A stretch of 64,000 nucleotides of DNA from Escherichia coli (GTDB lineage: Bacteria; Pseudomonadota; Gammaproteobacteria; Enterobacterales; Enterobacteriaceae). Below the pieces are notes generated by a model. That model saw only the letters and a list, made by a program, of their open reading frames with translations, was not told where the DNA came from and made no database searches. The position numbers were made by a program, and so were the translations under genes. Each line of letters begins with the position of its first letter. Positions within the stretch are counted from its first letter, which is position 1. The DNA is taken from assembly GCF_003334785.1 (NCBI RefSeq), contig NZ_QOWV01000006.1; one strand, given 5' to 3'. This document shows positions 42,844 to 45,066 of this stretch, one piece after another.

Positions 42844-45066
42844 TTAGTCCTCGTTTACAACCTTCTGCTGGGCGGCTTTTTTGGCCTGAGCGCGGGCAAT
42901 AGCCGCGGCAACTGCCGCTTTGCGCGGATCAACCTGTTCTTCTGGTACCGCATTAGCCTGTTGCTGTTCCAGCTTGCGTGCTTTGGCGCGTGCAATAGCC
43001 GCTTCGACGGCAGCTTTGCGCGGATCAACCTGTTCTTCTGGCTCCGCATTAGCCGGTTGCTGTTCCCGTTTGCGCGCTTTGGCTCGGGCAATAGCGGCTT
43101 CGACGGCGGCTTTGCGCGGATCGACCTGTTGTTCTGGCTCGGCATTAGCCTGTTGCTGTTCCAGCTTGCGTGCTTTGGCACGGGCAATAGCGGCTTCGAC
43201 GGCGGCTTTGCGCGGATCGACCTGTTCTTCTGGTTCCGCATTAGCCTGTTGCTGTTCCAGCTTGCGCGCTTTGGCACGGGCAATAGCGGCTTCGACGGCG
43301 GCTTTGCGCGGATCGACCTGTTGTTCTGGTTCCGCATTAGCCTGTTGCTGTTCCAGCTTGCGCGCTTTGGCGCGGGCGATAGCTGCTTCAACGGCAGTTT
43401 TACGTGGATCAGCAACGGTTGCTGCGTCGTTAGTTTGCTGCAGTTCTGCCTGTTTCGCTCTGGCTTGCGCTTTACGGGCTTCCCGTGCTGCAATAATTGC
43501 ACTGTTATCCGGGCGTTCGCCCGCTTTAATCACAATAGGCTGTGTAGCCTGGGCCTGTTTCTCTTTCACCCGCGCCAGAGCGGCAGCAATCGCATCTTTA
43601 TCTTTGGCTGCAGGTTGAACGGCTGCGCTCTTATGTCGTTCAAGGCGAGCCGCTTTTTCGCGCTCCAGACGAGCCTGGCGCGCTTCGAAACGCGCTTTGG
43701 CTTCTGCGGCGCGCTTTTCTTCCTGACGAATAGCCGCAATTTCAGCTTTTTCCTGACGGAAATATTGCACCAGGGGAATATTGCTCGGGCAAACCCACGC
43801 GCAAGCCCCACATTCAATGCAATCAGCAATGTTATGCGTGGTAGCTTTATCGTGTTGCTGACCTTTGCTGAACCAGTACAACTGTTGCGGCAAAAGATCC
43901 GCAGGGCAGGCGTCAGCACAGGCGCTACACCGGATGCAGCTTTGTTCTTCCTGTGGTTCGCCAAGTTCATTGGCAGAGGGAGCCAACAGACAGTTGGTAA
44001 TCTTTACGACCGGGACATCCAGCCATGGCAAGGTAAAGCCCATTAGCGGGCCACCCATAATCACCATTTGATCGGCAGAGGGGCAGAATCCGGCATCATT
44101 CAATAAATGACGCACTGGCGTCCCCAGCCGTGCCCAGACGTTGCCCGGGCGAGCGATTGCTTCGCCAGTCAGGGTTACAACACGCTCGGTAATCGGCTCG
44201 CCATCAATAACGGCACGTTTCACTGCATAAGCAGTGCCGACGTTTTGCATTAATACGCCGATATCGGATGAACGCCCGCCATGTGGAACCTGCTTCCCGG
44301 TCAGAATGTAGGTTAATTGTTTAGCACCGCCAGAAGGATATTTGGTTGGAATCACCCGCAGAGAAATATCGTTAGAGTCCGCCAGCACCGCGCGCAGCAT
44401 GGAAATCGCCTGCGGTTTGTTATCTTCAATGCCGATAAGAATTTCGCGTGGCTGCAGAATATGCGCAAGAATGCGAATACCCTCTACGACCTGAGCCGCG
44501 CAATCCTGCATCAAACGGTCATCGGCGGTAATGTACGGCTCGCACTCAGCCGCGTTGATAATCAACGTTTCAATCTTATCTCCGCCACCCTGCAATTTAA
44601 CGCCTGTCGGGAATCCTGCACCGCCCAGCCCGGCAACACCAAACTGATGTATGCGCTCGATTAACTCTTCGCGACTGCGAGTGCGATAATCGGCCCAGCC
44701 GTCGCGCGGGATCCAGCAGTCTTCACCATCGGCATCAATAATCACGCTTAATTCAGCTAAAGCTGAAGGATGAGCCGTAGAGTGGGGCGCAATAGCCGTA
44801 ACGGTACCCGAGGTGGGCGCGTGAACAGGCAGCATTTTGCCGCGACCACGGGTAAGCGGCTGGCCGCGCAATACTTTATCGCCGACGCTAACGCACAACT
44901 CACCTTCAGCGCCAATATGCTGTTTCAGTGGAATAACAAAACGCTGCGCCAGGGGTACCTGGCGCAGGGGTGTACCGTTGGACTGGGTTTTCATCTCCGG
45001 TGGATGGATGCCGCCGTTGAAATCCCAGATTTTATTTTTTCTGAATGCAGAGAATAACTTAAGCAT
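42844..45066 (-). CDS. rsxC: Rnf-type complex subunit C with C-terminal 32-aa tandem repeats
   Basis: 740-aa ORF with two 4Fe-4S motifs ([24 protein letters not shown]) and a C-terminal tandem repeat array. Confidence 0.93.
42885..43420. repeat. in-frame 96-bp tandem repeat array inside rsxC (about 5.5 copies)
   Basis: The 10-mer TGCGCGGATC recurs at 42921, 43017, 43113, 43209 and 43305 (exact 96-bp period) with a degenerate copy near 43401; encodes repeated [32 protein letters not shown] units. Confidence 0.9.

Follow-up and report, generated by a model that had tools for sequence, protein, structure and literature searches.

The minisatellite ms11 is one of seven loci for multiple-locus analysis of variable-number tandem repeats (MLVA) from Gorgé et al. 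2008 (J Clin Microbiol 46:1026), as that study is cited in later typing papers (PMC4644529, PMC8215070, PMC4553163), and its published repeat size is 96 bp (PMC8215070, PMC4644529). Among Escherichia coli from wastewater, ms11 alleles of 4.5-7 plus a null allele were recorded (PMC8215070), and Shigella sonnei carried alleles 4, 5, and 6 (PMC4553163). These MLVA papers treat ms11 as an anonymous size marker, in which the gene is not named and the peptide is not discussed (PMC8215070, PMC4644529, PMC4553163). Here we describe a 96-bp tandem array inside rsxC in a 64,000-nt stretch of an E. coli genome (assembly GCF_003334785.1, contig NZ_QOWV01000006.1; this whole stretch is called the window below). 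The array is the already known minisatellite/variable-number tandem repeat (VNTR) marker ms11, which has been used for E. coli/Shigella typing since 2008. We hold it highly probable that the array encodes helix-linker units under selection, with a helix that is probably functional, and that its copy number varies slowly and is loosely constrained. A first-pass annotation made from the letters of the window had proposed that the repeat is potentially length-polymorphic and contingency-like. We find that reading supported in part: copy number does vary among strains, but the contingency idea lacks support.

Identity and structure of the array

The published ms11 primers (PMC8215070, PMC4644529) each have an exact single match in the window, the reverse primer CTGGCGCTGGTTATGGGTAT inside rsxD (42796-42815, plus strand) and the forward primer GAAACAGGCCCAGGCTACAC inside rsxC (43542-43561, minus strand). 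The pair brackets the array, and the in-silico amplicon of 766 bp corresponds to allele 5 (5.0 repeats) with the published 286-bp offset. Both primers thus anneal on either side of a repeat with a 96-bp unit and a strain-variable copy number, there is no DNA-level difference between ms11 and the window array, and the published range of alleles 4-7 overlaps the range of 2-7 found here. In the literature, rsxC or rnfC combined with VNTR, MLVA, or '96 bp' led to no E. coli report under the gene names. Since the locus is a published VNTR, which the first-pass annotation had missed, the cross-strain check of copy number that it asked for has been routine since 2008.

The motif TGCGCGGATC matches at 42921, 43017, 43113, 43209, and 43305, i.e., five times in the 64-kb window against 0.23 expected, and none of 100 shuffles contained five matches. 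Tandem Repeats Finder (TRF) reported one array in rsxC at 42890-43411 (coding strand minus; period 96, 5.4 copies, 91% matches, 0% indels, score 813). All five positions noticed in the first reading are therefore exact, its estimate of about 5.5 copies comes to 5.4, and the 32-aa unit that it quoted is exactly unit 2. The array lies within the last 190 codons of a 740-aa minus-strand open reading frame (ORF) at 42844-45066, and the NCBIfam model for the RsxC equivalog, NF003454 (cutoff 345), gives this ORF 868 bits. Four Pfam domains were assigned within aa 14-458: RnfC_N (PF13375), the Nuo51-type, flavin mononucleotide (FMN)-binding Complex1_51K (PF01512), SLBB (PF10531), and Fer4 (PF12838), the last being a 4Fe-4S dicluster (2x[4Fe-4S]) domain. 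The translation and these domains bear out the earlier placement of the array, in frame, in the C-terminal region of an Fe-S (Fe-S/FMN) electron-transport subunit. The catalytic domains take up aa 14-458. For the tail that follows (aa ~460-740) there is neither a Pfam family, none reaching past aa ~458, nor coverage by Protein Data Bank (PDB) structures.

Translated on the minus strand, the array reads as five units of 32 aa, whose first residues are aa 553, 585, 617, 649, and 681, and then a 28-aa terminal variant. Unit 1 (aa 553-584; 43315-43410) is the most diverged full unit and stands first in 9/9 alleles examined. Unit 2 (aa 585-616; 43219-43314) and unit 3 (aa 617-648; 43123-43218) follow; unit 4 (aa 649-680; 43027-43122) carries L to R and Q to P changes, and unit 5 (aa 681-712) lies at 42931-43026. 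The terminal variant (aa 713-740; 42847-42930) is the last unit in every allele. The flanks of the array in the window are 100% identical to those of E. coli K-12 MG1655.

Copy number among E. coli genomes

To size the array in other strains, the two unique flanks were joined synthetically into one query and searched against 5,426 complete E. coli genomes; the flank-to-flank span in each genome gives the array length. One of these genomes had no flank match, ∼21 had no full-length place, and one match fell on a record labelled as a plasmid. Copy numbers were read from two 'spread' samples of 59 complete genomes each (118 combined). The K-12 class of 5.4 copies was found in 36 genomes of the first sample and 33 of the second (69/118), and it was followed by 4.4 copies (10 and 13; 23/118), 6.4 copies (6 and 8; 14/118), and 7.4 copies (5 and 5; 10/118). 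Arrays of 2.4 and 3.4 copies each appeared in one genome of the first sample and none of the second (1/118 each).

Array lengths differ by exact multiples of 96 bp, in some alleles with an additional 3 or 6 bp. The eight alleles that we fetched all have an annotated, intact rsxC, of 644, 676, 708, 708, 709, 772, 774, and 806 aa. Reading unit by unit, we found that alleles differ by whole 32-aa or 33-aa units and that the first unit and the terminal variant are kept throughout; in each of the nine alleles examined the frame is preserved and the gene intact. The 33-aa units, seen in the B2-type alleles L001, L003, and L007, contain one extra Gln codon (QQQ to QQQQ), and this trinucleotide change nested in the 96-bp repeat accounts for the +3 and +6 bp spans. 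Events involving whole units can be seen in the alleles: that of strain 22KM0354 (unit types 22,28,14) equals that of KE41 (22,28,33,34,14) minus two internal units, and the array of SF-468 contains two identical adjacent units. Strain 510016 was considered as a one-step deletion from K-12, because its flanks are identical and it has one unit fewer; its internal units differ from those of K-12 at several sites, and we regard it as a different allele. The comparison across strains thus bore out that rsxC length and copy number both vary among E. coli genomes (2.4-7.4 copies in the 118 sampled, intact proteins of 644-806 aa) with the reading frame preserved, as had been predicted.

Selection, predicted structure, and conservation of the repeat peptide

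Among distinct 96-nt units, the mean nonsynonymous divergence (dN) was 0.03 and the mean synonymous divergence (dS) 0.38, with dN/dS of 0.07-0.08, and of the 31 variable positions in the unit, 19 fall on the third base of an rsxC codon. The low ratio and the third-position bias together show that the peptide is under strong purifying selection. In a single-sequence AlphaFold2 (AF2) model each unit forms one helix of 20-24 residues, and the helices are separated by low-confidence linkers of ∼8 residues; the predicted TM-score (pTM) of 0.25 suggests that the tail would adopt no fixed tertiary packing. The first 18 aa of a unit carry a net charge of +4, and the last 14 aa, an acidic, proline-containing linker, a net charge of -4. 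Each unit would therefore be read as a basic, alanine-rich helix of ∼24 residues followed by a short acidic linker with proline, and the five units plus the terminal variant would make a flexible helix-linker string on RsxC, which is the NADH/FMN/Fe-S subunit on the cytoplasmic side of the Rsx (Rnf-type) complex. According to the established topology of Rnf complexes, RsxC is located on the cytoplasmic face. A membrane-binding amphipathic helix was also considered and is unsupported, the hydrophobic moment of the core helix being 0.20-0.25.

The solved RnfC chains 8ahx_C, 7zc6_C, and 9eri_C match the RsxC query to aa ∼498 at most, and the structurally solved RnfC proteins of A. vinelandii, C. 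tetanomorphum, and A. woodii are without an E. coli-type tail. A search of PDB sequences with the tail gave no significant match; A. vinelandii RnfC reached a non-significant E value of 0.12. In the same database the part of the tail before the array (RsxC aa ∼516-586, window ∼43309-43521) showed non-significant similarity to the N-terminal part of RNA polymerase omega (E = 0.056).

The core of the unit is not confined to E. coli. Searching a protein database with the tail, we retrieved RsxC/RnfC fragments of Salmonella, Klebsiella, Yersinia, Dickeya, Lonsdalea, Proteus, Haemophilus, Mannheimia, Vibrio, Aeromonas, and Pseudoalteromonas. The tails from all 11 genera contain DP[RK]KAAV[AE]AAIAR[AV]KA[KR]K, with spacers that are quite different in length and sequence. 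The core helix therefore recurs in at least 11 other genera (12 with Erwinia, from PMC10587187), and the RnfC tails that carry the motif span at least five orders of Gammaproteobacteria. With a hidden Markov model of the motif, three or more copies were detected in 29 of the 149 closest 50%-identity cluster representatives of RsxC, and the array periods are lineage-specific, ∼27-60 aa across these RsxC/RnfC relatives. A basic helix (+3 to +5) alternates with an acidic spacer in 28/29 arrays, the exception being P0114 with a mean spacer charge of 0.0. Two occurrences outside RnfC were not counted. In P0048 an Mfd TRCF fragment is joined to an RsxC-like tail, and in P0073 motif copies are joined to an HATPase_c fragment; both look like chimeric contigs or artefacts of gene calling. 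A literature search found no paper describing the helix motif beyond the Erwinia amylovora repeat, and the cross-genus conservation of the RnfC/RsxC helix module, the sole part of this work that we found undescribed, might be new.

Purifying selection and conservation of the core helix across Gammaproteobacteria make it probable that the helix is functional, and plausibly it acts as a docking or tethering element. A more specific proposal, which we regard as possible and somewhat doubtful, is that the array is a lineage amplification of a deeply conserved RnfC/RsxC module of a ∼20-aa basic helix and an acidic spacer, that the repeated module gives multivalent docking to an acidic partner, and that copy number sets its valency or reach. 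As a guess, the docking targets could be flavodoxin or ferredoxin, SoxR-DNA, or the membrane surface. If the module does serve in docking, copy number would set the valency or reach of the Rsx complex.

Alternatively, the array could be functionless filler, a DNA-level expansion tolerated in a dispensable tail whose peptide is unselected. Copy numbers of 2-7 are indeed tolerated in intact rsxC genes, the solved RnfC proteins of A. vinelandii, C. tetanomorphum, and A. woodii do without the tail, and the tail has neither a Pfam family nor a fixed tertiary fold in its predicted structure. We nevertheless consider this explanation improbable: unselected filler would hardly show dN/dS of 0.07-0.08 among its units, a ∼20-aa core that recurs in 12 genera including Erwinia while the spacers diverge, and the same basic-helix/acidic-spacer charge pattern in 28/29 arrays. 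In an evolution experiment the substitution rsxC I525F, which falls in the non-repeated part of the tail, was judged 'null or neutral' by the authors (PMC4759930), a verdict that leaves the function of the tail undecided.

Rate and mode of copy-number change

The rsxC array changes slowly and is not a fast switch. With a query made from ST131 flanks, 60/60 best-matching genomes (including EC958, JJ1886, and SE15) had 100% flank identity and the same 2000-bp span. All 11 sampled rows of the O157:H7/O55:H7/O145:H28 flank-identity group (∼98.5-99.1% to K-12) had 6.4 copies, and the K-12 and BL21 laboratory strains and derivatives that were sampled all had 5.4. Units within one array differ at 4-14/96 nt with a mean dS of ∼0.38; they are old and are not undergoing rapid homogenisation. 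Adjacent units match exactly over at most 55 bp in K-12, whereas in other alleles the match extends to as much as 155 bp (in SF-468); such shared runs of 55-155 bp are enough for occasional misaligned pairing. Instability of tandem repeats is well known in E. coli. From the allele structure and this general knowledge, whole units would be gained or lost when units pair out of register in replication or in sister-chromatid recombination. Such changes would be rare, leaving alleles of 2-7 full units in the species that are fixed within clones, and the copy number itself appears near-neutral and loosely constrained.

The idea of a contingency-type locus, that is, a fast-mutating array whose within-clone copy variants are selected because they adjust SoxR reduction or the response to oxidative stress, seems very unlikely to us. 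In its favor, the in-frame period permits length change without loss of the protein, E. coli has six length classes, S. sonnei isolates carry alleles 4, 5, and 6 (PMC4553163), and a 'non-frameshift deletion' in rsxC, its position not given, is listed for a line of ATCC25922 evolved under olaquindox (PMC7696260). However, the identical span in 60/60 best-matching ST131-type genomes, the 6.4 copies in 11/11 rows of the O157:H7/O55:H7/O145:H28 group, and the uniform 5.4 copies of K-12 and BL21 speak against within-clone variation, as far as the rate can be seen indirectly in this way, and the 4-14 nt differences between units (dS 0.38) speak against rapid homogenisation. Nor was on/off switching found: with a unit of 96 bp (32 codons), the nine alleles that we read all keep the frame and an intact gene, and changes by 96 bp can cause neither a frameshift nor a promoter effect. 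Finally, the product is an NADH-binding redox subunit on the cytoplasmic face; it is neither a surface structure nor part of restriction-modification, the kinds of product on which host or phage selection acts. The term contingency-like, used in the first reading, thus did not hold: there is no on/off switching, the alleles are stable within clones, and the units have reached a dS of ∼0.38. Two side observations could reflect the array, namely the rsxC deletion in the olaquindox-evolved ATCC25922 (PMC7696260) and the appearance of RsxC among the features chosen by a machine-learning model of O157:H7 clinical outcome (PMC12711010).

Several points weigh against our reading of a slowly varying ms11 array that encodes selected helix-linker units. 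We found no experiment that ties Rsx activity to the tail or to the number of its units, and the AF2 model was built from a single sequence. The logo instances of the helix motif were picked by a regular expression, so that the constrained columns are not independent evidence of conservation; such evidence is confined to the flanking columns, D-P-K-K before the core and A-K-K-A-A-Q after it, which are unconstrained and still strongly conserved. The two samples of 59 'spread' genomes are not a full census, and public genomes are skewed to clinical clones. The mechanism of slippage or recombination is drawn from the structure of the alleles and from what is generally known of E. coli tandem repeats. 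S. sonnei is a young clone with three gel-based alleles (PMC4553163), which indicates that the rate of change is not negligible.

Assembly errors and overlapping reading frames

Many partial or frameshifted RsxC fragments in the databases end in the array (P0010, P0020, P0087, P0091), which shows that it is error-prone in draft assemblies and would favor the explanation that the copy-number differences are artefacts of collapsed or mis-assembled repeats. Our counts, however, come from complete-genome assemblies, the differences are exact multiples of 96 bp (or of 96 with 3 or 6 more) and consistent within lineages, and independent MLVA studies by polymerase chain reaction and gels found the same kind of alleles (PMC8215070, PMC4644529, PMC4553163); an assembly artefact can be set aside with near certainty. 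Many of the database entries derived from the array are fragments from the ends of contigs or frameshifted stretches with the label 'hypothetical' (P0010, P0020, P0087); in several genera of enterobacteria the repeat evidently disrupts draft assembly and gene calling.

A real overlapping gene on the opposite strand or in an alternative frame is just as hard to credit: ORFs of 435 aa (42739-44046, plus strand, antisense, kept open by the repeat), 232 aa (42920-43618, plus strand, antisense), and 215 aa (42855-43502, minus strand, out of frame) traverse the array and the 736-aa database protein P0091 reads the frame of the last, but variation is concentrated in the third bases of rsxC codons, the RefSeq annotation has rsxC and rsxD alone at this place, long ORFs are expected where GC-rich Ala/Lys/Glu codons are repeated without stops, and P0091 follows RsxC with 99% identity as far as aa 532, after which its frame shifts in the manner of a sequencing error or a pseudogene. 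Because of the third-position variation and the absence of all three from the RefSeq annotation, we take these ORFs to be by-products of the repeat; both antisense ORFs are judged spurious from the ORF list, RefSeq, and the variable sites, in agreement with what the first-pass annotation had said of them. The alternative-frame tail of P0091 forms a completely different repeated sequence, either by a frameshift error or in a pseudogene allele.

Other features of the window

Upstream of the array, on the minus strand, the rsxC tail contains a degenerate copy of the helix motif at aa 489-506 (43549-43602), identified from the allele reading and the motif search, and many RnfC homologs without arrays have a helix motif at this position. 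A second degenerate copy was read from the sequence at aa 520-545 (43432-43509). At the downstream end, the rsxC stop codon TAA (42846-42844) abuts the ATG of rsxD (42843-42841), and a GAGGA in the last rsxC codons (..AAC GAG GAC TAA ATG..; 42848-42852, minus strand) is the likely ribosome-binding site of rsxD. Judged from these letters, the GAGGA within the terminal repeat unit probably has this second role, which would imply translational coupling of the two genes, and the constancy of the terminal unit in all alleles may be partly due to it.

The neighbors of rsxC score as the RsxA, RsxB, RsxD, RsxG, and RsxE equivalogs and as Nth (endonuclease III), in the order rsxA-B-C-D-G-E-nth, which places rsxC in an rsxABCDGE operon. 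An Rfam scan of 41500-45500 at gathering thresholds gave no match, so no known RNA family overlaps the array. The single other tandem repeat in the window, at 5320-5477 on the minus strand (period 81, 2 copies), corresponds to two adjacent tRNA-Val(GAC) genes.

Comparison with known repeat systems

For E. coli/Shigella typing the array offers nothing new, as ms11 has been sized on gels since 2008; its alleles are clone-level and not outbreak-level markers. An RsxC length between 644 and 806 aa should not be taken as gene damage, and the array is known to mislead short-read assembly and gene calling. What the MLVA papers cited above leave aside is the encoded peptide, which is strongly conserved though its copy number is not.

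The closest protein-level counterpart is the tandem array of 40-aa units that Erwinia amylovora has in its RsxC (PMC10587187, 2023). It lies in the same gene, is C-terminal and in frame, varies from 0 to 5 copies by strain, and was proposed as a VNTR typing marker. The first 16 residues of its unit are identical to those of the E. coli unit. The unit is 40 aa long compared to 32 aa in E. coli, and its second half (AAQAAPAAADKAAPVQQPAAEQ) is unrelated. It follows that each lineage amplified or homogenised an array of its own, with the core as the common element.

The array also resembles the diverged tandem repeats of ∼100 bp that Lovett and colleagues reportedly used as deletion substrates in E. 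coli, in which whole copies are said to be lost or gained by misaligned replication or recombination and sequence divergence between copies is said to be stabilising. Those repeats are engineered reporters with measured rates, whereas the rate of the rsxC array is bounded indirectly by its clonal stability.

With the classical contingency loci, the simple-sequence repeats of Haemophilus and Neisseria, the array shares repeat-mediated, reversible length mutation inside a gene. In contrast to their units of 1-8 bp, the rsxC unit is 96 bp and the array is always in frame, without an on/off switch. The classical loci encode surface or restriction-modification products, whereas RsxC is cytoplasmic, and its array did not vary within the clone among the best 60 ST131-type matches.

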